From: Acidimicrobiia bacterium
GTDB taxonomy: Bacteria; Actinomycetota; Acidimicrobiia; Spongiisociales; Spongiisociaceae
NCBI GenBank assembly: GCA_963663955.1
Contig: OY760694.1
Coordinates: 1,158,327 to 1,222,326, forward strand
Direction of reading: 5' to 3'
DNA: 64,000 nt
Shown in pieces: positions 23,417-47,635 of the stretch. The stretch's first letter is position 1. Each line of letters starts with the position of its first letter. Position numbers and translations under genes: made by a program. The notes below the pieces were generated by a model that did not search any database, was not told where the DNA came from, and worked only from the letters and a program-made list of their open reading frames with translations.

Positions 23417-23581
23417 TAGGTGATCCGAGGCAACGTACCCGGAGCAAACCGACCCTATCCGGGTTGCTCAGCACCGGATGGGTCGATCTCACCGGTTTAC
23501 ATAGTCGCCGAACTTCTCGGTCGGCGTGAAGAACCGGAAACCGACTGTGGACGAGTTCTTAGGGTCTCCACGCCGTGATCA

Positions 23582-25855: not shown

Positions 25856-26174
25856 CGCCGCTGCCTCAGACGACCCGGAGCTGACCGAGATGGTCGTCCC
25901 GGTCGAATGGTTCGCCACACGGCCCCTTGAGCAGGCGGTTTTGGGAGAAAGGCCTTTTCGCCTCACAGGTCACCGTCTGCAAACTGCGCGACGAGAACAC
26001 AATCAAGACGGTCGAGTCGGCGTTCGGGCTCGACTCTCCAATTGACTGATCGACCGGCCCTCAAGCCAGTGTCCCACGGCTTGCTTAGTGGACTGCCCCC
26101 ATTGCTGCTCGTCCGTTTAGGGGGGCTGATGATGGGAAGGAGGAGCCGCGAAGGTTCTCCAGAAGGTATAGCTA

Positions 26175-26379
26175 GCCCTGATTATTCAGGTTTCCTACAC
26201 ACCGAGGCATGTAACGCCGGTTCAACCCGAGTATCAGGATCACTCCACGGTTCACCCGACAGGTGGACCTCGCACACCGGACCGGGACGGGAAACGCTGA
26301 TAGCTGTATTGCCTGGTCAGGGTGAGATTATGCCCTACTCCACTCATCCTCCAAGCCCCCATCCGTGAATAATCAGGGC
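26175..26379 (-). mobile_element. MITE copy E
   Basis: TA flanks at 26173-74 and 26380-81. Confidence 0.85.
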
Positions 26380-26463
26380 TAGAGTCTTCGACTTTCCTAG
26401 ACGGGGTCGAACGGCTTCCGGGCACGGGGGAGTAGGAGGTAGAACGGTATGGACCTCGGCAGG

Positions 26464-28347
26464 CTAGAGCGCGTGAATGTCAGGGATGCGTGGCAGCACG
26501 AGGCGTTTCTTGTTGCGGCCGCGTACCCCGGCCTCGAGAACCACCTTACGGAGGCGAAGGAAGTGCGGGGTGACCTCAACGCACTCGTCATCGGCAATGA
26601 ATTCAAGAGCTTGCTCGAGCGACAGGATGCGAGGTGGAGTCAGACGGACGGTGTCGTCGGAAGCGGCGGCGCGCACGTTGGTCTGTTTCTTCTCACGGCA
26701 GATGTTGACGTTCATATCGTCGCGCCGCGGGTTCTCGCCGATAACCATGCCCTCGTAGACCTCGTCGCCGGGAGTGACGAACAGCGAAGTCCGGTCCTGC
26801 AGGGCGGCAACGGCGTAAGCCGTGACCGCGCCCCTGCGATCGGCGACTATCGAGCCTGAGCGGCGAGAGCGAAGCTCCCCCAACCACGGGGTGTAGCCTT
26901 CGAACACGCTGCCCATGAGGCCGGTGCCACGAGTCTCCGTGAGAAACTCGGTGCGGAAGCCGATGAGTCCACGGGCCGCCACGATGTAGTCGAGACGAAC
27001 CCATCCGGTGCCGTGGTTCGACATGTTCACCATGCGGGCCTTACGCTCGCCGAGGAGTTGGGTTGTCGCACCGACGAAGTCCTCGGGGACATCAATGGTG
27101 ATGCGCTCGGTCGGCTCGTGGAGGCGTCCTCCGACGGTTCGTGTGACGACTTCGGGCTTGCCGACGGTCATCTCAAAGCCCTCACGACGCATGATTTCCA
27201 CTAACACGGCGAGTTGAAGCTCGCCCCGTCCCTGAACTTCCCAGGTGTCGGGACGGTCGGTGTCCGACACTCGGATCGACACGTTGCCGACCAGTTCGGC
27301 ATCGAGACGGTTCTTGATGAGGCGGGCGGTCACCTTTTCACCGTCTAGTCCAGCCATTGGCGACGTATTGGTACCGATCGTCATCGAGAGGCTCGGCTCC
27401 TCCACCGCGATCACAGGAAGAGGAACGGGCTTGGCGAGATCGGCGAGTGTCTCACCGATGGTGATGTCGGGGATGCCGGAAATGGCGATGATCTCGCCGG
27501 CGTCGGCGTCGTAAGAATCTACTCGGTCGAGGCTCTCGGTGACATATAGGTCGGTGATCTTGGCTGTGGTGGTTGCTCCGTCGCTGCGGCACCACGCCAC
27601 GTATTGACCCTTCTTGATGGTTCCGTGGATGATGCGACAAATCGCGATGCGGCCGACATACGGGCTGGAATCGAGGTCGGTGACCCAGGCTTGGAGTGGA
27701 TGCTCCGGATCGTGGCGAGGTGGCTGGACGGTCTCAAGTAGCGTTTCGAACATGGGCCGCAGGTCGATGCCCGGCTGCAGGGGATCCAGCGTTGCAGTGC
27801 CACGGCGAGCGTTCGTGTAGACGATCGGAAAGTCGATCTGATGTTCTTTGGCGTCGAGGTCGAAGAACAACTCGTACACCTCGTCGACGACTTCGGAGAT
27901 ACGGGCATCAGGCCGATCGATCTTGTTGATCACCAACACGACGGGCAGGTCGAGTGCCAGCGCCTTGCGGAGCACGAACCGTGTCTGTGGTAGCGGACCC
28001 TCGCTCGAGTCCACCAGGAGGAGTACCCCGTCGACCATCGTCAGTGCCCGCTCTACCTCACCACCGAAATCAGAGTGCCCGGGTGTGTCGACGATGTTGA
28101 TCTTGATCTCCTCGCCGCTGTCGCGGACGTAGCGGACGGCGGTATTCTTGGCGAGGATCGTGATGCCCTTTTCCCTCTCTAGGTCCATCGAGTCCATAAC
28201 GCGCTCGGCGACCGTCTCATTGGCCCGAAAGGCGCCGGACTGCCAGAGCATGGCATCCACGAGGGTCGTCTTGCCGTGATCGACATGAGCGATGATTGCC
28301 ACGTTGCGCAGGTCTGCACGCGCGACCAGATGTCGGGATTCAGCCAT
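26464..28347 (-). CDS. typA: Translational GTPase TypA/BipA
   Basis: 627 aa. G-domain motifs AHVDHGKTT and DTPGH, plus EF-G-like domains II, III and V and the BipA C-terminal domain. Confidence 0.95.
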
Positions 28348-29037
28348 TGGGCCACGTCCAAGGGGTGGTATACGGGTGGGGTTGCTACGGCTCCGTCGCT
28401 TGCGGATTCAACTCGACGAAGCGTCGGGCCGAACATGGAGGGCTAGTCTCGCGCAGCGCCGCCCACCTTCGTGGTTGGTTATAACACCTAAGAAGACTAG
28501 CGGATAGGCGGAGCGCGCTCGCCCGCGTAGTCACTTCGACGCGACTGCCGGTCACTAAACCCAAGGTCATCGTAGTCGGCTCTTGACCTGTCGCAGCCGC
28601 CGTTCGTCACCGAGGCCGACGGCAACCCGTTTCCTTAAGACGGTTATTCCCAGTCGCAAGGCGATGAGATACTATTGGGGGAGGTAGACCCGTGAACTAC
28701 GAACTGATTTACGAAGAGCGCCTTCCCTCCTCCAACCACGCACTCCGGCAGTCTGTGGACTCCGGGAGCTGACGCCTCTGGATCAATGGTCGTTAACCGC
28801 GGGCCCGCTTGACGCTGATAGCCGCCCAATAGGGGAATGCCAGACCACATACCCAGTACCGATCGAAGATAGCCTCGGTCAGAAGCACGATTAGGGCCAC
28901 CTTCGTTGGTCATTTGGCCCGGGCCATCCCGGAAGGAAAGCGGTTCGGTGTAGGTCGGCCTCTAGCCGGCCGGTCGTGGTCCGCCTTGGTAACCCCCGGG
29001 CGGACCAGCACGCCTGAACGGTCCACCAGACGGGTTA

Positions 29038-29240
29038 GCCCCGATTATTCATGGTGGGGGTTTGGAGGATGCGTGGGATAGGCCATATTCGCGTCCTGAA
29101 CAGGCAATACCGCTAACGGCGTTTTCCGTCTGGGTCCGGTGTGCAGAGGCGCCTGCAGGGTGAACGGTGGGTTTATCCTGATACTCGGGTTGATCTGGCG
29201 TTACATGCCTCGGTGTGTGGGAAACCTGAATAATCAGGGC
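29038..29240 (+). mobile_element. MITE copy F
   Basis: TA flanks at 29036-37 and 29241-42. Confidence 0.85.
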
Positions 29241-29321
29241 TAGCCACACCCGTTCGTGATGACCGTCCGGTAGAACCATCATCCGCTACAAATCCTCAAG
29301 TACTGCCTCGGCTGTCCGCCC

Positions 29322-29476: not shown

Positions 29477-31141
29477 TCAGATGACTGCGAGGGGGGCCAT
29501 CGCGTCGATGTCGGTTACGACGTCGATCACTGCCGGCCGTTCCGCTTCTAAGGCTTGCTCCATCGCCGGACGGAAGTCGGATGGATCCTCAACCCGGATG
29601 CCCAGCGCGCCCATCTCCGCCGCCAAGCGAGCGAAGTTCACGTCGGTGAACGTCCAGAGGCGCCGACCTTCCGTGGTCTGCCCCCCGCCGTAGGCCCGGT
29701 CGAATCCACGAGCCGATTGATTCCCGGAGCTGTTGTTGTTCACGATGGTGACAGTTGAGATACGCCGGCGGACCGCCGTTTCTACCTCCGCGAGGTGGTA
29801 CCAGAATCCGGCATCTCCCGTGAAGCAGATGACCGGCCGGTCCGGGACAGCGCACTTGGCGCCGAGCGAGGCGGGAAAGGCCCATCCGAGATGTCCGGCG
29901 CTCCGCAGGTAGGTCTGATCTCGAGTACGTATGTCGTACATGCCCCCCATCCACATCCCGGCATGGCCTGTATCCACGACGACGCAGGCATCGTCGGGCA
30001 CTGCGGTCGTGAGTTGTGTACAGATGAGTTCGGGTCGGATCGGGATGGTTTCCGATTCCATGACGGCCTTATAGCGGGTGCGCCATAAGGCGGTTTCCCG
30101 CCGGACGGTCTCGATCCACTCCGATCTCGGGTCGGCAGCCGTTTCGACCCGTTCCAGCATCTTGGCCAACGTTAGTCTCGCATCGGCGTTGATCCCTACC
30201 GCCAGCGGGTAATTTCGGCCGAGTGCTGCGGGGTCGATGTCGATCTGGATTGCTCCAATGCCCGGGCGAGGAACCTGCCAGAAGTGAGTGGTCATGCTGC
30301 CGGTGCTCGATCCCACGAAAAAGACCAGATCGGCTTGGTTCACCACCCGGTTGGCGGAACTGCGCGAGTAGGTCCCTACCACACCGACCGATAACGGATG
30401 GGTTCCGGGGACGGTGTCCTTACCGTTCAACGAGGTGGCTATCGGAATAGACAACCGCTCGGCGAGTTCCACCAACTCAGCGGAGGCTCGTGACGTTCTG
30501 ACCCCGCCTCCGGCCACGATAACCGGACGGCGGGCCCGGTCCAGAAGGGAGAGCGCTTCCGCGATGTCTTCGTCCCGCGGCCGTGGTCTGGAGGGGGGAA
30601 TCCTTGAGGAGGACTCTTCGATGTAAGGATCGAGGTCGGCCTCGTCGAGTTCCACCTGCCCTTCGTTACCCGCGAACTGTAGATGCGCCGGGCCGGGGCA
30701 ACCCGAAACAGCCGACCGGAACGCGGAACGCACCAGATCAGGGAGTCGATCCACCCGGTCGACGGTTCGGTTGAACTTGGTGACGTTGACAAAGGCGGGT
30801 AGGTCGTCCGCCTCTTGGTAGACACCACGTCCCGCGAACTCCGGATGGAGACCGCCCGTCATAGCGATAACAGGGGAGTGGGCGAGGTGAGCCTCTCGCA
30901 ACCCGGCAGCCAGGTTGAGCGCCCCCACCGCCTGAGCCATGCATATGCCCGGCTTGCCGGCAACCCGTGCATACCCGTCGGCCATGTATGCCGCAGCCTT
31001 CTCTCCGTGGGTATGGATGCGCCGGATACCGAACTTTTCCATCTCCGCCATCGTGTGGCGCAGGATGGCGGGGACCATGAAGACATGGGTGACGCCGTAC
31101 GAGTGCAGCATCCCCGCCAGAGCCCGAGCACCGGTGATCAT
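29477..31141 (-). CDS. Thiamine-pyrophosphate-dependent enzyme (acetolactate synthase large subunit / sulfoacetaldehyde acetyltransferase-like)
   Basis: 554 aa with TPP-PYR, central and TPP-PP domains. The TPP motif is GDAGF...NN. Confidence 0.85.
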   Translation of the reverse strand: MITGARALAGMLHSYGVTHVFMVPAILRHTMAEMEKFGIRRIHTHGEKAAAYMADGYARVAGKPGICMAQAVGALNLAAGLREAHLAHSPVIAMTGGLHPEFAGRGVYQEADDLPAFVNVTKFNRTVDRVDRLPDLVRSAFRSAVSGCPGPAHLQFAGNEGQVELDEADLDPYIEESSSRIPPSRPRPRDEDIAEALSLLDRARRPVIVAGGGVRTSRASAELVELAERLSIPIATSLNGKDTVPGTHPLSVGVVGTYSRSSANRVVNQADLVFFVGSSTGSMTTHFWQVPRPGIGAIQIDIDPAALGRNYPLAVGINADARLTLAKMLERVETAADPRSEWIETVRRETALWRTRYKAVMESETIPIRPELICTQLTTAVPDDACVVVDTGHAGMWMGGMYDIRTRDQTYLRSAGHLGWAFPASLGAKCAVPDRPVICFTGDAGFWYHLAEVETAVRRRISTVTIVNNNSSGNQSARGFDRAYGGGQTTEGRRLWTFTDVNFARLAAEMGALGIRVEDPSDFRPAMEQALEAERPAVIDVVTDIDAMAPLAVI

Positions 31142-31385: not shown

Positions 31386-32682
31386 TTATGCTTCCCAGAG
31401 CATTTTGATGGGCATGGCGAACAGGCGTTCCGACACTCGCTGGATGCGTTCGCCGTCATGGAGGAGGATGCCGCAGACAAAGCGGTCTCCCGTAGCGCTC
31501 CTAATACGCTTCAGACCCTTGAAGTGCCGCGGTAGGGCGGTTGCGCCGGCCTTGACCTCGATACCTACGACCGTGCCGGGCGAACATTCCAATATGAGGT
31601 CAACTTCGACACCGTCCTTGTTCCGGTAGTGGCTGATTGTGGTTGGTTCCTCGCTGAGAGCTACGGCCTTAGAAAGTTCTGCGTAAACGAAGCCTTCCAG
31701 GAGGGGACCTAGCTTCTGCCGGTCTTTCAAGACCTCAGGCCGGCCTACCCGCACAAGAGTTGCCAACAATCCGGAATCCAAAAAGTGCAGCTTGGGCGCC
31801 TTCACCAGCCGCTTCAGTTCATTGTTGTGCCATGCCCTCACTCGATGAACAAGGAACATCTGCTCGAAGAGGGTGATCCAGCGATCCACAGTCTTGGCGT
31901 CCACGCCGAGTTGAGCGGCAAGGCGACTGGTGTTGAGTAGTTGGCCGGATGAGATCGCTGTCCGCTCCATTAGGAGTCTCCCGTTTGGTTACTTTGGCAA
32001 GATCGTAGACTTCGCGCTCGGCCAGGGAACGAGCATAGGAGAGTATCCAGGCCCGGCGCCGGAGTGGATCACTTCGGGCTAACGCCAGGGGAAATCCGCC
32101 GGAAACCACCCGTTCGATCAGGTCGGCGGTAGGTCCGGTGTTCTGGTATGTCGCGAAGCCTCCGATGAAAGCCTGGTCAAGGAAACCTGGTGGGGGAGTG
32201 CCCGCTATCTCAGCTTGTGAGAAGGGCAGCAGGGTTATGGTTTCCACCCGTCCAGCAAGCGAGTCCGGGGAGGACGAAACCGCAAACAGGTCTACGGAAC
32301 CGGTGATCAAGAAACGTCCCGGGCGAGGGTCCTCGTCTACCTGCTTCTTCAGGGCGAGCAGCATGTCGGGAACACGCTGTATTTCGTCGATCACCGCATA
32401 TTCGAGACCTCTGATGAAGCCATCCGGATCATCGCGGGCGAAACGTCTATTTTGGTCGTCGTCCAGCGTGATGAAGGGCCGACCGTCGTCCTCCGCTACT
32501 CGGCGGGCGAGAGTTGTTTTACCGGACTGGCGCGGCCCGACGATGGCGACGATACGTGTGTCCGAGAGCGCGGTTCGAATCCGTGCCTCGGCGTGCCGAT
32601 CTACAAAGCCGCCGCCGATGAGTGCGTCCATGATTTGGTCTCCGTCCGATCCGGAATTGTTAACCGTCTGATTTGGAATCAC
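31386..32682 (-). pseudogene. AAA+ ATPase (AAA_14 + DUF4143 family), frameshifted
   Basis: The N-terminal ORF (32682-31819, Walker A GPRQSGKTT) and the C-terminal ORF (31970-31386, DUF4143-like) overlap in different frames. Together they equal the intact paralog next door. Confidence 0.7.
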
Positions 32683-32867
32683 GACACCATTCGAGTCCTA
32701 TCAATCCAGCACAGTCATATAGACGGAATTGCCGACTACATGGACGGGTCAACGACAGTGACACCCCCGATGCGCCGGTACCGCGGGTACGGAGGCCAGA
32801 TACCCTCGACCGGGTGGAAGAGATAAGGATATTTGGGACTGTCCCGGCATTACGCCGCTCGCTGTAC

Positions 32868-34160
32868 TCATGGACCCAGGGAGGTGATGGGGATCACGCA
32901 CACCCCGTCGGGTCGCTCGAATGCATAGCCGGTAGCCGTGACCACGATCAGTCGCGACGGAAGGCCTTGCGAGGCGCTATCGACTCTGGCTCGGAGCCGG
33001 AGCAGGGACGCCGCGGCCTTGTCGATGGCTTCTCGGCCACCCAGTTTGACCTCTACCGCAGCCCAGCGTCCGTCCGGTTGGGATATCACCAGGTCCACCT
33101 CCAAACCCTGGCTGTCCCGGTAGTGGGAGACAGACGCCCGGATGGCTCCGGCGTAGACCTGGATATCGCGGATCACCATCGATTCGAAAAGGCGCCCGGC
33201 GAACCGCAGATCTCGCAGCAGGGCATGCACCCCCGTGTCCAGTACGGCCGCTGTGAGGGAGGGATCGACGAGGTGGAGTTTTGGCGCCTTGCGGACCTGA
33301 GCCCGAGATGCCAGATGAGGTCTCCACGCCGGCACCCTCTCCACCACGAACAGACGCTCGAGGGCGTCGAGGTACCGGCCGACTGTGCGGCGTTCCAGCG
33401 TAGGAAGTCCGTTACCCGGCGCTGTGTCCGCCGCCAGCGTGGTGTGTTTGACGTCTGTAGCCACGTTCCGGGCTATCGAGACCAGGAGGCGCTGCACCTT
33501 GAGTGGGTTCCGCTCGACGCCGTCCACTCTCGATACGTCGGTGCGGGTGATCTCTGACAGGTAGGCCCGGGCAGCGTCACCCGCCACATCGACGCTCGCG
33601 CCGACGTGTTGCGGCCACCCACCCCGGCAGGCCAACTCGAGCACATGGCCGAGGGAATGTCCCTGGTCCGGCGCCCGGCAAGGCCCACTGTCCAGGAGCT
33701 CGCCCAGGGAGATCCGACCTTCCGAGTCGCCGGACTCGATCAGACTCATGGGACGCATGCGCACCCTGACGATCCGGCCGGCACCGGAGTGTCGGGTGAT
33801 GTTATCGGGCGGGTCAGCCGAGCCGGTGAGAATGAATTGCCCCTTGAGCCCTCGCGCATCGCAGGCGCGCCGCATCGGGTTCCAGATGCCGGGCGCTAGC
33901 TGCCATTCATCCAGCAACCGCGGCGCCTCACCATCAAGGACCGCGGCATGATCCATACCCGCTGCCAGCGCCTCTCCGACGCGTTCGTCCAGAAACAGGG
34001 CGCTTCGAGCGAATCTCCTACTCGTCCAGGTCTTGCCACAGGCTCTCGGACCCTCTACGACAACGGCGGGCATGGTCTCCAGCGCAGAACGCATCCGAGA
34101 GTCCACGATCCGGGGCAGGTAACCGACGGGTATCATTCTGTCCGATTCCACCTGTCGCAC
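32868..34160 (-). CDS. AAA+ ATPase (AAA_14 + DUF4143 family), intact paralog
   Basis: Walker A GPRACGKTW, Walker B DEWQ, and a C-terminal DUF4143-like region (KLHLVDPSL). Confidence 0.8.
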   Translation of the reverse strand: MRQVESDRMIPVGYLPRIVDSRMRSALETMPAVVVEGPRACGKTWTSRRFARSALFLDERVGEALAAGMDHAAVLDGEAPRLLDEWQLAPGIWNPMRRACDARGLKGQFILTGSADPPDNITRHSGAGRIVRVRMRPMSLIESGDSEGRISLGELLDSGPCRAPDQGHSLGHVLELACRGGWPQHVGASVDVAGDAARAYLSEITRTDVSRVDGVERNPLKVQRLLVSIARNVATDVKHTTLAADTAPGNGLPTLERRTVGRYLDALERLFVVERVPAWRPHLASRAQVRKAPKLHLVDPSLTAAVLDTGVHALLRDLRFAGRLFESMVIRDIQVYAGAIRASVSHYRDSQGLEVDLVISQPDGRWAAVEVKLGGREAIDKAAASLLRLRARVDSASQGLPSRLIVVTATGYAFERPDGVCVIPITSLGP

Positions 34161-34299
34161 TTCCTCTTACCCTCGTACGATAGGCTAGCCCAAGGCTATA
34201 TGCCAGTTTATCGGCACTCCATATGCCAATAAACTGGCGCTTTAGAGCTTGCTCTGGATGGGGAGAGTTGCTTCGGGCGGGTCGCCTTGGCCGATTCCT

Positions 34300-34412
34300 T
34301 GCGCGGTTACCAGTACCGGGTTGGCCGCGGGTCCGTTATTAGGCTCCACCAAGAAGGCGTTGGCCCCAAGAGTCATCGTGAACCTCTCAATGGATTCCAT
34401 CCGACCGCCGTT
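34300..34412 (-). pseudogene. Relic 5' end (promoter-proximal region plus first codons) of a paralog of the OLD/PARIS-like ATPase gene
   Basis: It aligns to 37945-38090, covering the upstream region, start codon and P-loop-encoding segment of the 36268-38064 gene. There is a roughly 43-bp internal deletion (encodes MESIERFTMTLGANAFLVEPNNG...). Confidence 0.65.
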
Positions 34413-35391
34413 TCGTGACGGACCTGAGCCTGGATCCACCGGCGGGTTTTGGTGGTTTGGTGGTTGGATAGACGTGGAAAGTGCCTCTGGTCTGGGACAA
34501 TAGCCGTAAGCGATGGGGCTGTTGGTCCAGATTTGGTAGGCACTTCCTGTGAGTGGAGTATGGCAGAGTATTGACCGGTTGGGGGTTGTTTTCGATGATG
34601 GGGGTTGGTGGCGGATGGGGGTTTGCTGCTGGCGGGGACGGTGATGAGCCGTCTGGGGTTGGAAGCTTTGGTGGATGACACGGTGCGGTTGGGTGGTCGG
34701 GTTGGTGGCGCGAGTCCGGGTCGTAAGGTGCTGAGTTTGGTTGCTTCGATGCTGATGGGGGGTTCTCATATTGATCATGCGGATTGGCTGCGGGCCGGGG
34801 CTTCGGGTCGGGTGTTGCCCCATCGGGTGATGGCTCCGTCTACGTTGGGTACGTTTCTGCGTTCGTTTACTTGGGGGCATGTACGCCAGTTGGAAAAGGC
34901 GTTGACGTTGTCGACAGGTCGGGCGTGGGAAGCGGGCGCGGGTCCGGGCGGACACCGGGGAAGTGGTCGGCGCCCGGCTTCGGGAAGGGTCTTCGCAGCG
35001 GGGTGTGGTCCATTTCGCTCGGGAAACCATCGGTCGGGTGCGGAGGGCCGGAGTTTCGGGTGGGATAAGGGTTCGAGCCGATTCGGGATTCTATTCCTAC
35101 CAGATGTTCCGAACCCTGAACCGGGCGGGTGTCGACTGGTCGATCACCGCGCCCCGATACAAGAACGTTCTTGAAGCGATCTCGGGTATCGACGAAGACG
35201 CCTGGGCTTCTATCGACTATCCCCAAGAGGGTGTAGCGCAGGTCGCGGAGACCGTGATACAGGCGACGCATCGTACCCACCGGCGGGAACACATAAAACT
35301 ACGTTTGGTGGTACGCCGCACCCGTCTGGTGGGTTCCCACGCCACACTGTTTTCCGACAAACCCGGTACGGTTCATCCGGTTCCAGCGTGA
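34412..35391 (+). mobile_element. IS1380-family transposase remnant (frameshifted and C-terminally truncated)
   Basis: Overlapping ORFs encode ...LLLAGTVMSRLGLEALVDDTVRLGG...HRVMAPSTLGTFLRSFTW... and ...RADSGFYSYQM..., typical of IS1380-type DDE transposases. The fragments lie in different frames and total about 260 aa, not about 450. Confidence 0.55.
35353..35375 (+). repeat. Solo copy of the IS3-element right terminal inverted repeat
   Basis: TCCGACAAACCCGGTACGGTTCA matches the right end of the IS3 element at 44489-44511 at 22 of 23 positions. Confidence 0.5.
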
Positions 35392-36267
35392 CTCTTGTGC
35401 CCATTTCGCGAAGGTGGCGCCTGACGCGCCCTATCCTCGAGCCGGATACGCCGCCAGCTACGTGACTATTGGGTGGCCGGCAGAACTCTACATCTGTCAA
35501 CACATAGCCCACCGCGAGGTAGGCGTGTTCCTGAGCGGAAAGAACGGTAGAGGGGATCCCGATGTCAAGAAGCGAATTGCACAGTGCGCAGCCGCGCTCA
35601 CGAAAGAGCTGGGGGAGGGGATAAGAGTTTCACGGGTCCTCGACTCACCAGCGCACCGACTCCAACGACCTGAGCAATTGGGACAAAATGGCACATTGCT
35701 CGAAGGCCGGCGAGCAATCTACGAACGAGTTCTGTCGAACGGCACTCCCCTCAACAGCGGCTGACTTGAGACTCGCCAACCGACAGAAACGGCTTGCGCC
35801 TGGGGTGGCGGAGAGCGAGAGTCCCTGATAAACGTCGCGTTCCGGTTTCCGCCGTGCCTTGTCTATATGCTTGCCACTCCAACCACCGCGATCCTTCCAT
35901 CGGAAAGGCCACCCGGAGGTCCGGCGTACGCTGTTCTCCGTCATCTGGGATCGAATCTGGTGATCGCTAACACCCTCGCCGATGAGATCCAAGGGGCCTG
36001 ATCGGAGGGGTCAATGAAGGCGAAGGCCCTCTTGCAAACCGGTGCGGTCGCCTGTGACGGGGTTTAGAAGGCCCAGGTAAACATCCCTGTTTGACCCGGT
36101 TGCCAACACAATATCCCCACAGTGTGATCCCTTGCTCATCTCAGCCTTCCTACCGTGGCACGGAGGTTACTTCGTGCGGGCCGCCATGGCCGATTTCCTT
36201 TGCGCGGTTATCAGGACCTGGTCGACCGAGGGTTCAGATCTGATTCGAGCACCGCGGGTAGTTGTCC

Positions 36268-38064
36268 CTACCACATGTGGTGGCCGAGCCGTCGTGGTTG
36301 AGTCGCGTTACCGACGATGCTGGAGTTGACCTCGAACAGCCAGTTGTGCATCTCCTCGGGTATCTCGGATTTGCGTAGTTGGCGAGCGAGGTGCTTGGTC
36401 GATACGGTCGTGTAACCGGCCTGCTGGAGGGTCTTGTTCAGTTCGTTCAGTATTGATTTGGCCGGATACCTGTGAAGGCGCCAGACGGGATCCGAGACTC
36501 GTGGCCTTAGCTCTGTGTTTGTTACGCTGATAGTGCGGGCTAGGTTCTTCTTGCCGAACGGGCTGAAGAAATGACGTTTTTCGGCGAACTGGGCCAGAAC
36601 ATCTTCCGTCATATCGTCTGTGATTGAATCCAACTGGGACGAGATATAACTCGGCGATGAGTTTGACACGCGGGCTAGTGCTGTTGGGTCAAGTAGATAG
36701 TTCTCAAGCTCCTTTCGCTTCCAGATATGGGCGTGGACGCCGACCGCATCAAGACTCGAGCACACCTTGCCAACGTCGACATCGGCTCGATAGTCGCGAT
36801 CCAACAGCACATATACCTCAACGGAACCATCGAGGAAATCTGAGACGAACCACTTAAAAGGTTCGACGCGGACCCAGTTGCTGAAGCCCTTGATCTCAAT
36901 TACTGCACAGTTGTGCTCGCGGGCCAGGTTGTTGGCACCTACGGTCTTCGCCAACTCCCGGATGATGGACATGTCGTCCCCTTCCACAAAGACCACGGTT
37001 CGGGCACGGAGGGCCGCTGCGAGCCGCAAGTTGAAGCTTGAGCCGATCTGGGTCGATAGATCCTCGAGCGATGCTGGCTTGGGTCGACGAACGGCCCTGC
37101 GGCGGGACTTGTCAACCCACACAACCGAGTCAGAAGACGCTTCCGCGAGCATCTCGGATGAGTGGGTTGCAGTGATCGTCTGCGCTGGCGTTGAGTCAAG
37201 CAACCTCACTAGACGCCGCTGGAGGTCAGCATGTAGATAGAGGTCAGGCTCATCAAGGATCACCACATCTGCCGACCGAAGGCGCCAGAGGTGGGTCAGG
37301 ATCTGTACGAAGATCTGCATGCCATCGCCGACCCAGTAGAGCTCCTTCGGCGTCCTGTCGCCACGCTGTTGCACGAGCGCGTCGATCTCTCGGTCGCCAA
37401 GCTCTCTGCCGGGACGTGTCGTCACCAAGAGTTTTTCAATTTCCGGGAGCCATGAGGTCACGAACTCGTTGAAGTTCTCCAACTCGCCGTCGCGCTTGAT
37501 CCGACGCAGATGGTTACGAGCATGCTGGCTGGACCTTCTGCCCTGGAAGTGGGCCCGTAGGTACTTCGTATCCCGGACTGTTTCGGTGTGGTTCAGTGGG
37601 TAGAGGCCCGGGATGACCCCGATCTGGCCGGTCAGTCCTCGAACCTCGCGTGGCTCCGAGATCGATCGTTCGTCGGGGTGGCGTAGGTAGAAGAACGGCT
37701 CTCGAGAGTCGTCGTCATCGGAGGGCCAAACCCCAGTGAGTATCAGTTTGGTGTCGGTACGAATAGATACGGCCGACTCTCCGGGGCGGAATTGGTGTCG
37801 AAGGTTCTCCGTCACCAAGCCGTACTGATCCGCGCGGAGCGAATGCGTGCGCGCAAGCCGGTGGCCATGTTCTCGAAATCCGGTCGCCCTTCTCCGGGAA
37901 GCGTGTTCCAACATCCCTGCCGCGACTCTTGCCGCCTCAATAAGGGTTGACTTTCCGGCGTTGTTCGGCCCCACCAAAAAGGCGTTGGCCCCAAGCGTCA
38001 TTGTAAACCTCTCGAAGGCCTTATAGTTCCACAGGTCTAGTTGTTGGATGCGCATGGATTCCAT
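36268..38064 (-). CDS. OLD-family / PARIS-like fusion protein: ABC-type ATPase (AAA_15/21-like) plus C-terminal Toprim/DUF4435-like nuclease domain
   Basis: 598 aa. Walker A GPNNAGKST, signature-like GDGMQ, Walker B VVILDEPDLYLH, H-loop TATHS. The C-terminus has VVFVEGDDMSII and VLLDRDY motifs (Toprim-like E/DxD). Confidence 0.7.
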   Translation of the reverse strand: MESMRIQQLDLWNYKAFERFTMTLGANAFLVGPNNAGKSTLIEAARVAAGMLEHASRRRATGFREHGHRLARTHSLRADQYGLVTENLRHQFRPGESAVSIRTDTKLILTGVWPSDDDDSREPFFYLRHPDERSISEPREVRGLTGQIGVIPGLYPLNHTETVRDTKYLRAHFQGRRSSQHARNHLRRIKRDGELENFNEFVTSWLPEIEKLLVTTRPGRELGDREIDALVQQRGDRTPKELYWVGDGMQIFVQILTHLWRLRSADVVILDEPDLYLHADLQRRLVRLLDSTPAQTITATHSSEMLAEASSDSVVWVDKSRRRAVRRPKPASLEDLSTQIGSSFNLRLAAALRARTVVFVEGDDMSIIRELAKTVGANNLAREHNCAVIEIKGFSNWVRVEPFKWFVSDFLDGSVEVYVLLDRDYRADVDVGKVCSSLDAVGVHAHIWKRKELENYLLDPTALARVSNSSPSYISSQLDSITDDMTEDVLAQFAEKRHFFSPFGKKNLARTISVTNTELRPRVSDPVWRLHRYPAKSILNELNKTLQQAGYTTVSTKHLARQLRKSEIPEEMHNWLFEVNSSIVGNATQPRRLGHHMW

Positions 38065-38255
38065 CCGGCCGCCGTGTTTCGCGACGGAACTCTAGCGGTG
38101 CTTCCTTACGGAGGCTGCGTGATCGTGACGTTAGTGCGAAGTCGCCAACTCCGATGAGAACGGACAACAGCACTAGCCGGATCCTGCTGTGCAGGTATTT
38201 TCCGTGATGTCCTATAATACACGTTATGTAAAGCTGGAGTAGGTCGCAGGTTGCA

Positions 38256-39035
38256 GTGCCCTATGATCCTCACATGACCTCGATCGACCAGCTGTTGGAA
38301 AGCGACCTCGATACAGCTTCAAGGATCGCCGCCGACATCCTTCCGGATGTGGTCGCTGCGCTGGATCTGCTAGTTCCAAAGTTGACAGCTGGAGCGGACC
38401 GTGCCGCGTTGCGCCGCTATTACAACGCGATCGATGGCGCAGCGCAGACTCTGGCATCGTTGCCCGCCGACAATCCGGAAGCCCATGTTCCTTCTTCGGT
38501 GATACACCGACTTCTACAGCGACACATCGTTGAGTTGGCATGGGTAGCCCCGTCAGCGGACGGAACCGGTGTGCTCATCGCGTTGACCGACCGAGTCCGT
38601 GGGCTGGTCGGTGGTTTGCCCCAAGAATGTGTTAAAGCGCGGCCGGATATCGATGAGCACCGTTTCGGATGGCTTTTTGAATCGATTGCCGACCTGGAGT
38701 TCGAACAAAGGTGCGGTTCACCACTGCGACGCGCTATGAGGACTTTGGAACTGTCGAGCGCCGAGATGGCGGGTTTGATGGGGGTGACACGCCAGGCGGT
38801 GGACAAGTGGCTACTCGCCTCGCCGCCAATCGAGCGGATGGCGAAGATCGGAGCGATAGCCGAGATCTCAGACATGCTCCGACACCGACTCCGGGACGGT
38901 ATGCCCCCCGTGGTGGCGCGGCGCCCGGCCGAGGCATACGGAGGACGCAGCATGCTCGACGTGATTGCCGACGACGATCACGAGTGGCTGCGTTGCTCCG
39001 TCAGGGAAAGCTTCGACTTCGCACAGGTAGGGTGA
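38256..39035 (+). CDS. Xre-family antitoxin of a RES-Xre toxin-antitoxin pair (HTH plus C-terminal toxin-binding domain)
   Basis: HTH ELSSAEMAGLMGVTRQAVDKWL. The C-terminus AEAYGGRSMLDVIADDD resembles the DUF2384/MbcA-ParS toxin-binding domain. The stop overlaps the RES gene start (GTGA). Confidence 0.7.
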   Translation: MPYDPHMTSIDQLLESDLDTASRIAADILPDVVAALDLLVPKLTAGADRAALRRYYNAIDGAAQTLASLPADNPEAHVPSSVIHRLLQRHIVELAWVAPSADGTGVLIALTDRVRGLVGGLPQECVKARPDIDEHRFGWLFESIADLEFEQRCGSPLRRAMRTLELSSAEMAGLMGVTRQAVDKWLLASPPIERMAKIGAIAEISDMLRHRLRDGMPPVVARRPAEAYGGRSMLDVIADDDHEWLRCSVRESFDFAQVG

Positions 39036-39547
39036 GCGTGCTGACCGTATCGATCGGTGGATCGTATTACCGGGTCGTTGACCCGGACTGGGCGGACCAG
39101 CTCGACCCGTCCTTCGCTTCTGCGCATCCAGGCCGGCGATGGAATCCGCCCGGGACGGCGTGCCTGTACTTGAACCACAACGTGACCACAGCCCGAGCCA
39201 ATGTGATGAAACGATTCGTAGGCCTTCCCTACGGAACTGAGGATCTCGACCCTGCCACAGCCCCTCTGCTGCTCGGAGTTGTCGTTCCCGATGGAGAAGC
39301 ATCCGACGCCTACACCGAGGCGGGCCTCTCCGCCTTGGGACTACCCCCCACCTACCCGCACGACATCGCCGGTGATATGGTCCCACACTACGTGTGCCAA
39401 CCGATCGGCCGGGCAGTGTATGACGCAGGACTAGACGGTGTCGACTGTCGATCCGTCGTCGCTGACGATTGCCGCGAGTTGGCGTGGTTCCCCAGACGCA
39501 GAACAGCATCCGAGACATCACGACTCGCCTTTGACAACTGGTGGTGA
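39032..39547 (+). CDS. RES-domain toxin
   Basis: 171 aa from a GTG start. It carries the RES signature GRRWNPPGTACLYL with downstream conserved E and S. Confidence 0.8.
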   Translation: MSVLTVSIGGSYYRVVDPDWADQLDPSFASAHPGRRWNPPGTACLYLNHNVTTARANVMKRFVGLPYGTEDLDPATAPLLLGVVVPDGEASDAYTEAGLSALGLPPTYPHDIAGDMVPHYVCQPIGRAVYDAGLDGVDCRSVVADDCRELAWFPRRRTASETSRLAFDNWW

Positions 39548-39638
39548 TAATCAGGCACCCCCCTGTCGACTCGATTCCAGACGCATCACCGTTCGTGGGA
39601 CTTGGTGCGGTGATTATCCACTATAATCACCGCACATT

Positions 39639-40793
39639 ATGCGGCGGTTATATATTCATGAGCAGCCTGAATGGCCCCAACTCCGATGGCGGATAGACAA
39701 ACTGGATGACGGTCTGGGCGCTGTCCGCTATAGACAGGGGCGTCTAGCGGGCCGGATGCAGTCGTTGGGGTTCCACCTCCGGCAGGAGGCGATGCTCGAG
39801 ACCCTAATCCAGGACGTTCACAAATCGAGCGATATCGAGGGAGAACGGCTCGACTTGGAACAAGTCCGTTCCTCTGTCGGGCGTCGCCTCGGTATGGACA
39901 TCGGTGGTCTTCGCCATGTGGAAGACAAGGTTGAGGGCGTGGTGGAAATGATGCTGGACGCAACCGGCAACTATGACCTCTCTCTAACACGGGATCGGTT
40001 ATGGCGCTGGCAGGCAGCTCTGTTCCCAACTACTAGGCGCAGCCGGATGTTACCGATAACCGTAGGCGGCTGGCGTGACGATCGTACCGGACCCATGCAG
40101 GTGATCTCCGGACCCATCGGTAAGGAGCGGGTACATTTCGAAGCGCCCGCCGCGGAGCGGATCGACAACGAGATGGAGGCATTCCTCAGCTGGTTCAACG
40201 AGTCATCGGACACTGACGGAGTGATCCGGGCAGCGTTGGCGCATCTTTGGTTCGTGACTATCCATCCCTTCGACGACGGTAACGGACGCATAGCTCGAGC
40301 GATCACCGACATGGCGTTAGCTCGCTCGGAAGGCGGCTCACAGCGTTTCTACAGTATGTCATCACAGATCCGGGTGGAACGCCGCGCCTACTACCACATC
40401 ATGGAACGAACCCAGAAAGGAACACCGGACATCTCGGAGTGGATGGGATGGTTCCTAGCCTGTTTGGGTCGAGCCATCGATGGAGCCCAGGCAATCCTGG
40501 AATCTGTACTCAAAAAAGCCCACTTCCGGCAACATATCGAGGGCGTGCCACTCAACGAAAGGCAGCGTCTGGTTCTCGATCGACTCGTAGACAGCTTCGA
40601 AGGCAAGTTAACCACCTCGAAGTGGGCAAAGCTGGCCAAATGCTCCCAAGACACCGCCCTGCGTGACATAACAGCCCTGGTAAACCACGGTATCCTAATC
40701 CGCGGTTCGGCGCGGGGTCGCAGTACCAACTACTCCCCCAGCACCCGTCTTTTTGAGGAACCCGGCGCCGTTTCCATCTTGTCGATTCCATGA
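39639..40793 (+). CDS. Fic/DOC-family protein
   Basis: Fic motif HPFDDGNGRIAR and a C-terminal winged-helix-like region. Confidence 0.9.
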   Translation: MRRLYIHEQPEWPQLRWRIDKLDDGLGAVRYRQGRLAGRMQSLGFHLRQEAMLETLIQDVHKSSDIEGERLDLEQVRSSVGRRLGMDIGGLRHVEDKVEGVVEMMLDATGNYDLSLTRDRLWRWQAALFPTTRRSRMLPITVGGWRDDRTGPMQVISGPIGKERVHFEAPAAERIDNEMEAFLSWFNESSDTDGVIRAALAHLWFVTIHPFDDGNGRIARAITDMALARSEGGSQRFYSMSSQIRVERRAYYHIMERTQKGTPDISEWMGWFLACLGRAIDGAQAILESVLKKAHFRQHIEGVPLNERQRLVLDRLVDSFEGKLTTSKWAKLAKCSQDTALRDITALVNHGILIRGSARGRSTNYSPSTRLFEEPGAVSILSIP

Positions 40794-41762
40794 CCTGATC
40801 ACCCCGGCGAGACCCGAACCTTTGTTGAGGCGATTCAGGGAGATGGTCCGTCGAGTGAAAGTTCCGATAGAGCCTCCTAATCTGGGTATTCTGCGGGTCT
40901 GACTATGTCGCTCCGTCTCCGCCCCTCCATTTCCCGGATTCATACCTGCACAGGATTCCAATCTCGTTCATTCCAGTTATGTTCCGACCGGTCGTAGATG
41001 AGTCCGAGGGCTCGGGGCGTGGCGATGATCGCGATGGCCGGATTGTTATGGAGCACGCTGGGGCTAGGTGTCCGGTTCCTGGATGAGGTCGGGACATGGG
41101 CAATTCTGTTCTATCGGGCTATCGCGCAGATTCTGGCGCTGCTGGTTCTCATAGCGATTCGTCATCGAGGCTTACTGGTTCACACCTTTACGAGTATCGG
41201 TTTGAACGGTCTAGTCAGCGGGGTTTCACTCGCTTCCTCTTCGATCTGTTTCGTATATGCACTGAGCCTGGTATCGGTAGCCGAAGCTACCTTGATCCTT
41301 GGTGCGGCCCCTGTGCTGGCGGGACTGCTCGGGTGGCTGGTGCTACGTGAGCCGATTACCGGAACCAATTGGAGGACGATGGCTATAGCGGGGGCAGGGC
41401 TAACGATCATGACCTATACAGGGACGGTATCCGGGAGTCTGGTAGGCACCGCTCTCGCCTTCTGCGCTGCCTTGAGTTTCGCGTCATTCACGGTGTTCCA
41501 GCGACGCGGGATGCGAACGGACATGCTGCCGGCGGTGATCGTCGCAGGAATAGTCACGCTGATCGTCACCGCCCCACTGATCGGGGGTGTCGTTATCAGT
41601 TCGATGGATCTTCTGGTTGCTTTCTACTTGGGCGGTGTTGCCCTCGCGGGAGGCTTGGCTCTCTTCACCATAGGTTCACGTTATGTCCGCTCCACCGAGT
41701 TGGTATTGATTGAACCACCCCGGGTTTTCCGGAGACTCTAATTGGTTGGGAGATAATGGAGT

Positions 41763-44154
<2,392 letters not shown>

Positions 44155-44481
44155 CAATACCTGTCCATCCGCTACACAAACCGTTTAACGGAAACCGGGA
44201 TCCGACCTTCGGTCGGATCCGTAGGAGACTCATACGACAACGCCCTCGCCGAATCCGTCATCGGACTATACAAAACAGAACTCATCCACAAACAGGCCCC
44301 ATGGCGTGACCGTGACCAGGTCGAGTACGCCACCCTCGAATACGTCGACTGGTTCAACCACCGGAGACTGCTCGAACCAAACGGGGACAAACCACCAACA
44401 GAGAGGGAGGCCGACTACTATCGTGACCACACACCAGCCCGGCTGGGACACACCCCGGCCCAGGTAGCTGGACTCAAGTAA
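44155..44481 (+). pseudogene. IS3-family OrfB, C-terminal part
   Basis: YLSIRYTNRLTETGIRPSVGSVGDSYDNALAESVIG...EYVDWFNHRRL is the conserved rve C-terminal region. Confidence 0.8.
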
Positions 44482-44830
44482 AAAACTCTCCGGCAAACCC
44501 GGTACGGTTCAGATCGCCATGACCGAGGTCGTGTTCGCCCCGGTGTGGGTTTGGTGGGTGTTCGGTGAGACCATAACGTTGGCCACCGGTATGGGCGGCG
44601 TTCTGATCATGGCCGCGGTCCTAGTACAGGCCCGTGCTCGTGAAATCCCGTCCGAGTCCCCACCGAACCACCCCTTGCCCGGTTTCCCCGGAAGGTGGGG
44701 TCGGCGGCGCCCCGCAAGCTGAGTATCCGGCGCGATTCAAGATTCAAGGCGTCGGTTTGTTGGAAACCTGACCAACCGGGGTTAAGGTCGGTTACCTGGT
44801 GAATCGGTATCTGGATCGATACGTGAATCG

Positions 44831-45589
44831 ATGTTACGGAGGGAGAGCGTTTTGAGGAGCCACGAGATCGACTATCAGCTTCATGGTGATGATCTCCAGT
44901 TCGTGGAGATAGCGCTGGACCCGGGAGAGTCCGTGGTTGCCGAGGCCGGCGCCATGATGTTCATCGAGGAGGGAATCGAGTTCGAGACCAAGTTGGGTGA
45001 CGGGTCGGAGCCCAATCAGGGGGCCTGGGGGAAGTTCAAGTCGGCTGGTAGAAGGGTGTTGGCCGGCGAATCGCTCTTCTTGACCCACTTCACCAACCGT
45101 GGGGGTGGCCGACGGAGCTTGGCCTTCGCGGCTCCCTATCCGGGAAAGATCATTCCCCTTGACCTGGCCGCCGTCGGGGGCCGGATTCTTGCCCAGAAGC
45201 AGGCATTTCTGTGCGCCGCCATGGGTACCAGATTGGGGATAGCCTTCACCCGGAAGTTCGGGACGGGCTTCTTCGGAGGAGAAGGGTTCGTACTGGAGGA
45301 TATCCAGGGTGATGGCTTGGCCTTCCTGCATGCGGGAGGCACTGTGGTCGAGAAGCATCTGGTGGGCGAAAGCCTCCGGATCGATACCGGGTGCATTGTG
45401 GCGTTCGAACCGCAGATACAGTACTCCATCGAACGGGCAGGCCGGGCTACGTCGATGCTGTTCGGCGGCGAGGGCTTGTTTCTTGCCACCCTCACCGGCG
45501 CCGGTCGTGTCTGGTTGCAGTCCTTGCCCTTTAACCGGTTAGTTGACGAGGTAATCAGGAACCTGCCGCCCTCAGGCTCAAGCGACTGA
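44831..45589 (+). CDS. DUF124/AIM24 (TIGR00266) family protein
   Basis: 252 aa with a glycine-rich beta pattern (FLTHFTN.GGG...FFGGEGFVL...GTVVEK) typical of AIM24/DUF124. Confidence 0.7.
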
Positions 45590-45693: not shown

Positions 45694-47340
45694 ATGTCGG
45701 GAGCAATCCGAGTTAGGCAAGGTGGGGATTCTCTTCCGGGTGCGTATGTGCTCACGGATGATCCCGCTTGTATGGGAGTTGATACGGTGACTGCGAAAGC
45801 AGCAATGGGGAAAGCAGCAATAATGAGGGTTAACCTTCACGAACAGGCCTATGAAGCCATCAGTCGGCTAAGGATCGCTCGATCCGACCTCAAGACTGTC
45901 GAGGCCAAGGCAGCACGGGAAGGTCTACCACACTCGGTCCGGGAATCGGTCAGCGCCTTCGCCAACACTGCCGGGGGTTTGCTGCTCTTAGGTCTTGATG
46001 AACTGACCTACCGTCCTCTGGAGGTCGATGCGCCGAAACTGGCTGAAGATCTGGCGTCGGCGTGTGCCTATGACCTCGAACCGCCCATCCAGCCCGACAT
46101 AGGTATCGTCGACGTCGGTGGGCGTCGGGTGGTTGCGGCCCTGGTTGCGGAACTACCTTCCGGACGCAAGCCCTGCTTTCTGAAGCGACGAGGAGTGAGT
46201 TGTGGTTCGTATATCCGGACCCACTCCGGAGACAGAAGGCTCACGCCCTACGAAGTCCACATCTTGGTATCCGGTCGTACTCAACCGCGTGACGATGTCG
46301 TGGTTGTTGAAGGTGCTTCACGTCGACACCTGGCGCCTGAATTGGTTGAATCCTTGTTGAGTCGAGTCAGGTCACATCGGGGCAGGATCGTTGCCGATTC
46401 GAGCGACGAGGAGATACTCAGCATGATGAACGTTTTGATCGGGGGTGATCCCGAGCGGGTGAGTCTGGCCGGCCTCATGGCCCTCGGTCGTTATCCTCAG
46501 CAGTTCTTTCCCCAGCTCAACGTCCATTTTATGGCTTTTGCCACCCCATCGGGCGATCCCTTGGAAGATGGATCGCGGTTCCTCGACAATGAATCCATCG
46601 ATGGTCCTATACCGTTGATGGTGGCTCGCACGCAAGCAGCCGTTCTGCGCAATATGACCCGCCGCACCGTGGTAACCGAATCAGGACGGTTCGATCAGTG
46701 GGACTACCCCGAAGAGGTCATCCGCGAACTGGTCGTAAACGCATTGGAACATCGCGATTACCATCCCCTCGCCCATGGATGGGAAGTGTGGGTAAAGATG
46801 TACCCGGACCGGTTGGAGGTCACGAGTCCCGGTGGGCTGCACGGTCCGATGGATCGCAGGCGGCTCATGTCCGATCCGGTTACGTCCTCTCGTAATCCAT
46901 ATCTCGCCAAGCTTCTCGAGGATGTACAGGTTCCGACGACAAGCCGGAGCGTTTGTGAGAGTCGTGGGTCCGGGCTGATCTCGATAGCGGCTTCACTCCG
47001 TAGGTGCGGGCTCATGCCACTTCATTTGATGGACCGAATCGATAGATTCACCGCGGTCGTGCGAAGCAAGCGGTGCAGCGCCCAGGAAAGTAACGAGTTG
47101 TGGGCGCCCCGATCGCGAGTGGGGACCAATCACAACTCCCGTCGGGGGGATCGCAGGACTGCCATCGTCGAGCTTCTCGCGGTCGGACCCAGATCCAGCC
47201 GGGAACTGGCGGGAGAACTCGGTATGACTCCTCAGGGTATCCTTCGATGGTTGCGCCGGATGGAAGCATCGGGTGAGGTCTGGCCCACGGAGGTGTCACG
47301 CCGGAGCCCGAGGAACCGGTGGCAACTGGCCGACAGATAG
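45694..47340 (+). CDS. Putative regulator with a Schlafen-like AlbA_2 domain, a HATPase_c_4 domain and a C-terminal wHTH
   Basis: AlbA_2 region ESVSAFANTAGGLLLLGLDE and HATPase_c_4-like ELVVNALEHRDY...LEVTSPGGL. The start is uncertain (alternative MRVNLHEQ near 45823). Confidence 0.65.
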   Translation: MSGAIRVRQGGDSLPGAYVLTDDPACMGVDTVTAKAAMGKAAIMRVNLHEQAYEAISRLRIARSDLKTVEAKAAREGLPHSVRESVSAFANTAGGLLLLGLDELTYRPLEVDAPKLAEDLASACAYDLEPPIQPDIGIVDVGGRRVVAALVAELPSGRKPCFLKRRGVSCGSYIRTHSGDRRLTPYEVHILVSGRTQPRDDVVVVEGASRRHLAPELVESLLSRVRSHRGRIVADSSDEEILSMMNVLIGGDPERVSLAGLMALGRYPQQFFPQLNVHFMAFATPSGDPLEDGSRFLDNESIDGPIPLMVARTQAAVLRNMTRRTVVTESGRFDQWDYPEEVIRELVVNALEHRDYHPLAHGWEVWVKMYPDRLEVTSPGGLHGPMDRRRLMSDPVTSSRNPYLAKLLEDVQVPTTSRSVCESRGSGLISIAASLRRCGLMPLHLMDRIDRFTAVVRSKRCSAQESNELWAPRSRVGTNHNSRRGDRRTAIVELLAVGPRSSRELAGELGMTPQGILRWLRRMEASGEVWPTEVSRRSPRNRWQLADR

Positions 47341-47398
47341 CGCTTTCCATATGGGATAGAAGCTATCCGAGGCCGGTTAGATTACAGAGTCGGGATTA

Positions 47399-47602: not shown

Positions 47603-47635
47603 TAGAGAGTCGGTCGAATTGCAAGGAGTATCCGG

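Follow-up and report, generated by a model that had tools for sequence, protein, structure and literature searches.

Does a dense group of defence-like and toxin-like genes in a bacterial chromosome mark a discrete island of acquired immunity, or can it arise in another way? This question is raised by a block at positions 31386-40793 of a 64,000-nt stretch of contig OY760694.1 (hereafter the window), from a bacterium of the class Acidimicrobiia, where two ATPases of the AAA_14+DUF4143 type, a nuclease of the OLD family, a RES toxin with its antitoxin and a Fic-domain protein follow one another within 9.4 kb. An earlier interpretation made from the DNA letters alone (the sequence-only reading) listed these genes, all of which are present where it had them, and proposed a horizontally acquired immunity island inserted between core metabolic genes. 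Here, we conclude that the region is probably a mosaic defence/addiction cluster, assembled piecemeal from small, independently mobile modules within the clade and then eroded by insertion sequences (ISs), and not a discrete island with borders.

The host appears to be a sponge-associated Acidimicrobiia bacterium near Poriferisodalaceae/Spongiisociaceae. The best matches of the thiamine pyrophosphate (TPP)-dependent enzyme encoded upstream of the block (29477-31141) are 71-81% identical at the amino acid level and are proteins of metagenome-assembled genomes of sponge-associated Acidimicrobiia, including 'Candidatus Spongiisociaceae', and the names attached to homologues of TypA and of the cluster proteins include Candidatus Poriferisodalis and Poriferisocius. 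The sponge symbionts of the Poriferisodalaceae (formerly TK06) are enriched in defence and toxin-antitoxin (TA) genes relative to free-living relatives, according to comparative genomics (PMC11706023). The scan against defence-system models that the sequence-only reading had suggested returned phage defence candidate PDC-S01 for both ATPases and SoFic for the Fic protein, while the best matches of the OLD protein (AriAB, AriA, GajA and Old) are all partial. The window has about 52 genes, of which about nine are defence-like. That six of these adjoin one another in the block (p ~2e-4 in a rough permutation test) supports a non-random cluster of defence- or toxin-like modules accompanied by transposon scars. 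The features are listed in table 1. We infer every activity of their products, and any anti-phage role, by analogy with characterized relatives.

Table 1. Features of the cluster and its surroundings in the window. MITE, miniature inverted-repeat transposable element; ORF, open reading frame; AF2, AlphaFold model; wHTH, winged helix-turn-helix.
Feature	Position	Strand	Basis or remarks
S01a, AAA_14+DUF4143 ATPase, PDC-S01	31386..32682	-	Pfam, PADLOC PDLC04790; two ORFs via 1-nt frameshift
S01b, intact AAA_14+DUF4143 ATPase, PDC-S01	32868..34160	-	Pfam, PADLOC, motifs
Remnant of second OLD-family gene	34262..34411	-	Nucleotide similarity to OLD gene
Decayed DDE_Tnp_1_4 IS, 5' two-thirds	34424..35358	+	Frameshifts and internal deletion
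Solo right terminal inverted repeat of IS3-family element	35353..35375	+	96% identical to 44489-44511
Stand-alone OLD-family nuclease	36268..38064	-	Pfam, PADLOC, conserved residues, AF2/Foldseek
Intergenic region between divergent OLD and antitoxin genes	38065..38273	.	Homology comparison
253-aa antitoxin	38274..39035	+	Homologues, AF2, Foldseek; ATG start 38274
171-aa RES-domain toxin, MbcT-like subfamily	39032..39547	+	Pfam RES, profile, alignment
Perfect 13-bp inverted repeat GTGCGGTGATTAT-N5-ATAATCACCGCAC	39605..39635	.	Contains TATAAT; ends 4 nt before Fic ATG
DUF4172-Fic-wHTH protein	39639..40793	+	Pfam, PADLOC, motifs, PDB match
EamA transporter gene, IS-interrupted at 41713/44512	40998..44722	+	Parts 40998-41713 and 44512-44722
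IS3-family element	41714-44511		3-bp target-site duplication GAT; splits EamA
ALIL frameshift pseudoknot in IS3	42041-42157		Rfam, 99 bits
IS30-family element nested in IS3	42707-44148
MITE, full copies (at least 7)	10954-11164, 19500-19708, 22128-22348, 23211-23419, 26172-26381, 29035-29243, 47396-47605
MITE, partial copies	54538-54619, 44743-44786, 61268-61305

The mosaic character of the region emerges from comparison loci fetched from relatives (L127 and L162-L174). In L173 and L174, where TypA is 97% identical, only the TypA gene itself is shared with the window (26500-28598, 96% nucleotide identity); their flanks (1-10000 and 11900-21866) are unrelated to it and contain different IS families, a PhD/PIN pair, a FitA-like ribbon-helix-helix (RHH) pair, a phage-integrase fragment and a Fic_N-Fic gene. 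Relatives with a 90% identical TypA likewise have no flanking synteny, and the TypA neighbourhood appears hypervariable across the lineage. The arrangement is thus not conserved, in agreement with the expectation of the sequence-only reading. Its 'core metabolic genes' on either side are an overstatement: the closest homologues of the TPP enzyme occur in unrelated contexts (80 GTDB loci, best 81% identity, none with the neighbours found in the window), and synteny in relatives does not extend to these flanks. A comparison of synteny through TypA in JGI metagenomes reached 71% identity at best, which was too distant. There are weak hints that, in distant Acidimicrobiia, TypA may lie near pdxS/pdxT/yebC or msrB.

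The modules themselves recur apart from one another. The OLD gene is found alone in L166-L172, and the antitoxin and RES genes occur without Fic in L164, between metabolic genes, and in L165, among other TA-like genes. The trio of antitoxin, RES and Fic is present in L163, where its neighbours are a type III restriction-modification system, a SEFIR/TIR protein, PemK, another PDC-S01 gene and, beside the trio, an intact copy of the DDE_Tnp_1_4 IS that is decayed in the window. Nucleotide homology between the window and L166 covers exactly 36202-38096, and so the OLD gene behaves as a unit together with its short flanks. Since the relatives closest in TypA share that gene alone, and each module occurs in other loci with other neighbours, we read the cluster as a mosaic whose modules move separately, set in a hypervariable region. 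These modules would be exchanged within the clade, and the region, as probably the genome too, is generally fluid.

IS and MITE scars, together with a deleted second copy of the OLD gene, show repeated turnover at this locus. In the remnant of that copy, the 3' flank (matching 36162-36233 at 82%) is joined directly to the start region and first ~22 codons (matching 37959-38075 at 85-95%), with ~1725 bp of the interior deleted and IS debris adjoining. This structure points to repeated acquisition or replacement at the locus.

A number of observations weigh against the reading of the region as a cluster of acquired defence modules. Composition gives no foreign signature: the G+C (GC) content of the cluster genes is 0.56-0.66 compared with ~0.60 for the window, and GC content at third codon positions (GC3) is 0.59-0.74 compared with 0.62-0.82 in flanking genes, so that the comparison of GC content and codon usage that the sequence-only reading had suggested does not set the block apart from its host. 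There is no tRNA at the block, no integrase domain among the ORFs scanned against Pfam and no block-specific flanking direct repeat, and no empty site was found among relatives, in which the flanks themselves are unconserved. PLSDB plasmids yielded no relatives of the antitoxin or of the RES toxin, and IMG/VR, where RES was not searched, yielded none of the antitoxin. With respect to function, the PDC-S01 family was not among the protective candidates in the one published test. The RES toxin carries Asn (N57) at the position of E69 in its counterpart MbcT, a position occupied by N, Q or other residues across its subfamily, and its activity could be altered or lost through the missing Glu. Non-defence roles are documented for Fic proteins and also for RES-Xre systems, the latter in connection with persistence and the stability of plasmids.

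Some of these points bear chiefly on the existence of an island with borders. Exchange within the clade would produce a mosaic of host-like composition, and such composition does not rule out mobility if exchange is of this kind. The region resembles defence islands and plasticity hotspots in its dense defence-like and TA genes, its IS and MITE debris, its variability between close relatives and its deleted second OLD copy, but differs from them in that its composition is not atypical, in that it has neither an integrase nor a tRNA site nor borders that can be defined, and in lying among surroundings that are comparably fluid. Of the proposed acquired island, the clustering and the difference between relatives at this locus therefore stand, while the borders, the integration machinery and the foreign composition do not. 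The same is true of the scars reported on both sides: those left by ISs are real, but MITE copies are spread all over the window, and therefore the two that flank the block (29035-29243 and 47396-47605) do not mark island borders.

A second account sees no immunity island but a junkyard, in which selfish addiction modules lie among IS debris: the TA pair, the Fic gene and the ATPase-nucleases would persist by being hard to lose or by hitch-hiking with ISs in a genome that rearranges throughout, and would offer no protection from phages. In the closest relatives, ISs and TA genes (PhD/PIN, FitA-RHH and Fic_N-Fic) fill the flanks of TypA to the same degree, a MITE occurs about every 9 kb, pseudogenes are present (S01a, the OLD remnant and many truncated OLD homologues), PDC-S01 is unvalidated and composition is host-like, all of which such an account would accommodate. 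However, S01b, the OLD gene, the TA pair and the Fic gene show no disruption, and many homologues conserve their catalytic residues. Furthermore, OLD-family and SoFic-type proteins have defence roles elsewhere that are experimentally supported, as reflected in the established literature and the PADLOC models. We consider the junkyard account unlikely, if still credible, and retain the mosaic defence/addiction cluster. As such, the cluster exemplifies a known pattern, in which sponge-symbiont Acidimicrobiia are rich in defence and TA genes, here within fast-changing regions shuffled by ISs and MITEs; apart from a RES toxin whose antitoxin is unusually long, it is an ordinary feature of these genomes and adds little in principle.

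The OLD protein appears to be a stand-alone (class-1-like) OLD-family nuclease. Its gene probably starts at M4 (38055), and Pfam places an ABC-type ATPase at the N terminus (AAA_21, 3e-24), together with a weak match to OLD-like_TOPRIM (0.006). The ATPase motifs consist of Walker A GPNNAGKS, Walker B LDEPD and H-loop ATHS, and the TOPRIM motifs are VEGDD and LLDRDY. Across 54 homologues, K38, D271/E272 and H301 (Walker A, Walker B and H-loop, respectively) are invariant, as are E361/G362/D364 and D422 of the TOPRIM domain, while D424, E452 and E454 are nearly so. In an AlphaFold (AF2) model with a predicted local distance difference test score (pLDDT) of 87.1, the top full-length Foldseek matches are GajA (8u7i, 8sm3) and the OLD protein of Thermus scotoductus (6p74), whereas PtuA and retron ATPases match the ATPase part only. 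The protein shares with class 1 OLD proteins (Thermus scotoductus OLD, P2 Old) and GajA the N-terminal ABC ATPase with an insertion, the C-terminal TOPRIM domain and the conserved E/DxD/E residues, but fold alignments show a very low sequence similarity of 13-15%. An exact-protein look-up gave no match.

Two systems built on OLD-like proteins were considered and rejected. Gabija pairs GajA with the UvrD-like helicase GajB, and no such helicase adjoins the OLD gene in the window or in L166-L172. For PARIS, no Pfam match to AriB/DUF4435 is found beside the gene and no AriB partner accompanies it in relatives at 85% and 55% identity, where the OLD gene stands alone with convergent neighbours; the PADLOC AriAB match spans model positions 333-530 of 694 only, and AriA is absent from the top 50 fold matches of the model. 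Of the label OLD/PARIS-like, the OLD part thus holds and the PARIS part is not supported. By analogy with Thermus OLD and GajA, the enzyme, in which an ABC ATPase is coupled to a TOPRIM nuclease, would nick DNA or degrade it, here without a helicase partner. Between the IS debris and the OLD gene, ~790 bp (35376-36161) contain no convincing ORF, match no protein family and resemble none of the fetched loci. An ORF of 42 codons (36011-36139, minus strand) begins just downstream of the OLD gene.

The PDC-S01 ATPases, S01a and S01b, are located next to the OLD remnant. Both match the PADLOC model PDLC04790 nearly full length (E 1e-67 to 1e-76). S01b is characterized by Walker A motif GPRACGKT and a C-terminal PD-(D/E)xK-like E-V-D...E-V-K motif. 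S01a has a likely start at ATG 32631 and is split into two ORFs by a frameshift within a AAACGGGAGA run near 31975-31990: ORF 31819-32682 on the minus strand corresponds to AAA_14 (7e-26) and ORF 31386-31970 on the same strand to DUF4143 (1e-39), and the halves match PDLC04790 at 1e-71 and 1e-75. S01a conforms to the PDC-S01 definition only with the frameshift repaired, and this copy is probably dead. Because the site consists of short homopolymer runs, the frameshift could be an assembly error; an exact-protein look-up of the C-terminal half found no independent assembly of the stretch on record. The presence of two related ATPases, one of them frameshifted, was correctly noted in the sequence-only reading. 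Their identity is merely 26.9%, which rules out a recent tandem duplication and leaves old paralogues or separate acquisitions. The exact-protein look-up of S01b gave no match. PDC-S01 is described as ranking fourth in frequency among 'defence' calls in prokaryotes and as still an unvalidated candidate (PMC12988326); the two proteins here would be ATPases fused to a PD-(D/E)xK-type nuclease domain that act on nucleic acid. In a distant relative (L127, TypA 67%), a homologue of S01b (45%) lies directly downstream of TypA, from 11822 onward, which may be a coincidence given that PDC-S01 is common.

The identification of a Fic-domain protein is borne out by Pfam matches to DUF4172 (9e-30) and Fic (6.5e-16), followed by a weak match to HTH_DeoR. 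The catalytic motif HPFDDGNGRIAR is intact (HxFx(D/E)GNGRxxR), and an inhibitory-helix motif, S-SDI-EG, is found N-terminal to it. This organization (DUF4172, Fic and C-terminal wHTH, with an intact catalytic motif and an N-terminal SxxxEG motif) is that of SoFic and CbFic2. The PADLOC SoFic model is matched nearly full length (7e-39, model positions 35-349 of 361), whereas SoFic of S. oneidensis itself aligns over the Fic core only (1.5e-8). The closest solved structure is CbFic2 of Coxiella (8cil_A), matched along its full length (2e-80, residues 5-365). By analogy, the protein would be an auto-inhibited AMP-transferase with a C-terminal DNA-binding domain. The inverted repeat directly upstream of the gene is partly conserved in L163, with a compensating change in its outer pair (two sequences compared), and could be an operator for the C-terminal helix-turn-helix (HTH). 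The exact-protein look-up of the Fic protein returned one 4.7-kb contig, from the same strain.

CbFic2, an AMPylase/deAMPylase, has histone H3 as a target of AMPylation, and the binding of its C-terminal HTH to DNA serves as its switch (PMC10628234). An alternative role for the Fic protein is therefore that of a DNA-regulated AMPylase/deAMPylase acting on sponge-host or bacterial chromatin proteins, as opposed to a defence factor or toxin. The full-length match to CbFic2 and the life of the organism as a sponge symbiont both favour this role, but the gene lies amid defence and TA genes in two genomes and matches the SoFic defence model over nearly its whole length. We regard a CbFic2-like role as quite unlikely, and keep the Fic protein among the modules of the defence/addiction cluster.

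The antitoxin of the RES pair could be identified only through its predicted structure, since neither Pfam nor NCBIfam nor PADLOC gives a match for its ORF. Its homologues form at least 193 clusters, with a length of ~253 aa (253 in most of the 120 listed), an identity of 52-97% and conservation that spans the full length of the alignments. Every named taxon among them is an Acidimicrobiia or sponge-symbiont genus, most matches being unnamed, and the antitoxin/RES family seems to be largely confined to chromosomes of sponge-associated Acidimicrobiia. In searches of the PDB, single sequences of antitoxin and RES toxin found nothing and matches required profiles; the antitoxin profile matched 8qnl alone, over the HTH, with an E of 0.1. 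The AF2 model (pLDDT 91.7) is more informative: all of its top seven PDB fold matches are antitoxins of RES toxins, including MbcA (6fkg_C; template modelling (TM) score 0.71 on the target, root-mean-square deviation 2.9 Å, 98 columns), NatR (8qnl/8qnq) and VPA0769 (8gug), with Xre of P. putida ranked lower and no other credible PDB family. On account of these fold matches, the C-terminal ~110 aa (~145-253) is predicted to comprise an HTH and an Xre/MbcA/NatR-type toxin-binding domain. The designation of the antitoxin as Xre is thus appropriate for this part of the fold. Residues 1 to ~140 constitute a conserved domain, helical throughout, for which Pfam, PDB and BFVD gave no match.

The RES toxin is recognized by Pfam (1.9e-9, 38 bits against a cutoff of 23.2), and its subfamily comprises 343 relatives among 1.84 billion representatives. 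The top match of the search, P0241, was discarded as spurious: it is 1202 aa long, contains 19 tandem ~62-aa repeats and looks like a translated satellite repeat. A profile of the subfamily matches MbcT (6fkg_A) at 3e-13, while VPA0770 and ParT are weak. Mutagenesis of MbcT showed that the toxin depends on R27, R47 and Y58 but not on S126, and that E69A retains limited toxicity (PMC6436930). The equivalents of the three essential residues (R14, R36 and Y46) are invariant or nearly so in the subfamily. Of the R-E-S polar triad, the Arg (R36) and a conserved Ser (S141) are retained and the Glu is replaced, and consumption of NAD+ by the toxin is plausible from its sequence.

The two genes are adjacent in the window and in L162, L163, L164 and L165. 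The GTG start of RES overlaps the antitoxin stop by 4 nt (GTGA, 39032-39035), the overlap that the sequence-only reading had described, and the pairs in L164 and L165 also overlap by 4 nt. Since the homology shared with L163 and L162 starts at 38203-38248, the intergenic region upstream presumably carries the TA promoter. A RES domain preceded by an HTH and MbcA/ParS-type antitoxin in a conserved two-gene pair defines RES-Xre systems such as MbcT-MbcA (Rv1989c/Rv1990c), NatRT, ParST, P. putida Xre-RES and VPA0770/0769. With these the pair shares the upstream antitoxin gene and the 4-nt overlap, its toxin is closest to MbcT and the C-terminal fold of its antitoxin is that of MbcA and NatR. It differs from them in the length of the antitoxin (253 aa compared with 111-149 residues in the matched solved chains), in the added N-terminal helical domain, in having no DUF2384 Pfam match and in the Asn or Gln at the name-giving Glu of the toxin subfamily.

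By analogy with these systems, antitoxin and toxin would form a translationally coupled type II TA pair. The MbcA-like domain of the antitoxin would block the cleft that holds the active site of an NAD+-degrading toxin of the MbcT type, the HTH would repress the operon and the N-terminal domain may add oligomerization or signal sensing. Going further, the long antitoxins and their toxins might represent a distinct, lineage-expanded class of RES system, in which the N-terminal domain senses a signal (for example, phage- or host-derived) and releases a Glu-less NAD+-degrading toxin, resulting in triggered abortive infection and not passive addiction. We offer this as a speculation with little likelihood of being correct. 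This RES system, with its 253-aa antitoxin and Asn-for-Glu toxin, is the component most worth experimental follow-up, and provides a way to learn what the added antitoxin domain does in an NAD+-depleting TA system.

It might also be asked whether antitoxin, RES and Fic make up one three-gene system, with Fic modifying RES or the antitoxin, or sharing a regulator with them. The trio is colinear in the window and L163 at ~80% nucleotide identity while everything around it differs, and the palindrome directly upstream of Fic is conserved with its compensating change. However, these are two examples only, which may share recent ancestry. Where copies of the pair are more distant (62% and 55% identity), Fic is absent, and the closest copy, in L162 (87%), is followed by an IS21 element instead. 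Moreover, the spacer between RES and Fic is unconserved and Fic has its own -10-like box. A three-gene system is thus very unlikely, and the pair and the Fic gene are treated as separate modules of the mosaic. The notion that the block is ancestral, vertically inherited core genome gains something from host-like GC and GC3, but is contradicted by the loss of synteny even at a TypA identity of 97%, by modules in unrelated contexts and by IS scars, and can be dismissed as scarcely credible.

The mobile elements of the window extend well beyond the cluster. The MITE is 212 bp in length with terminal inverted repeats of ~16 bp (TAGCCCYGATTATTCA); its copies are 76-87% identical, occur about once per 9 kb and match no Rfam family. 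TypA has copies to either side, and the points at which synteny with close relatives breaks off (26500 and 28598) lie within a few hundred bp of them. A scan of the window detected no tandem repeats, and promoter and terminator signals were no higher than background.

Further defence- or TA-like genes lie outside the block. A PIN-domain (VapC-like) gene of the TA type (22824-23213, plus strand) is found between two MITE copies. The protein encoded at 24327-25544 (minus strand) has a DEDDh exonuclease domain and matches the PADLOC candidate PDC-S48 over almost its entire length (8e-89), although an actinobacterial exonuclease with a housekeeping role may be just as likely. The interval from the IS3 element to the MITE that follows contains the genes for an AIM24 protein (44831-45589, plus strand) and for a protein combining Schlafen AlbA_2, HATPase_c_4 and HTH domains (45694-47340, plus strand), the latter with weak PADLOC matches to domains associated with prokaryotic Argonaute (pAgo). 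Both genes may be part of the same variable block.

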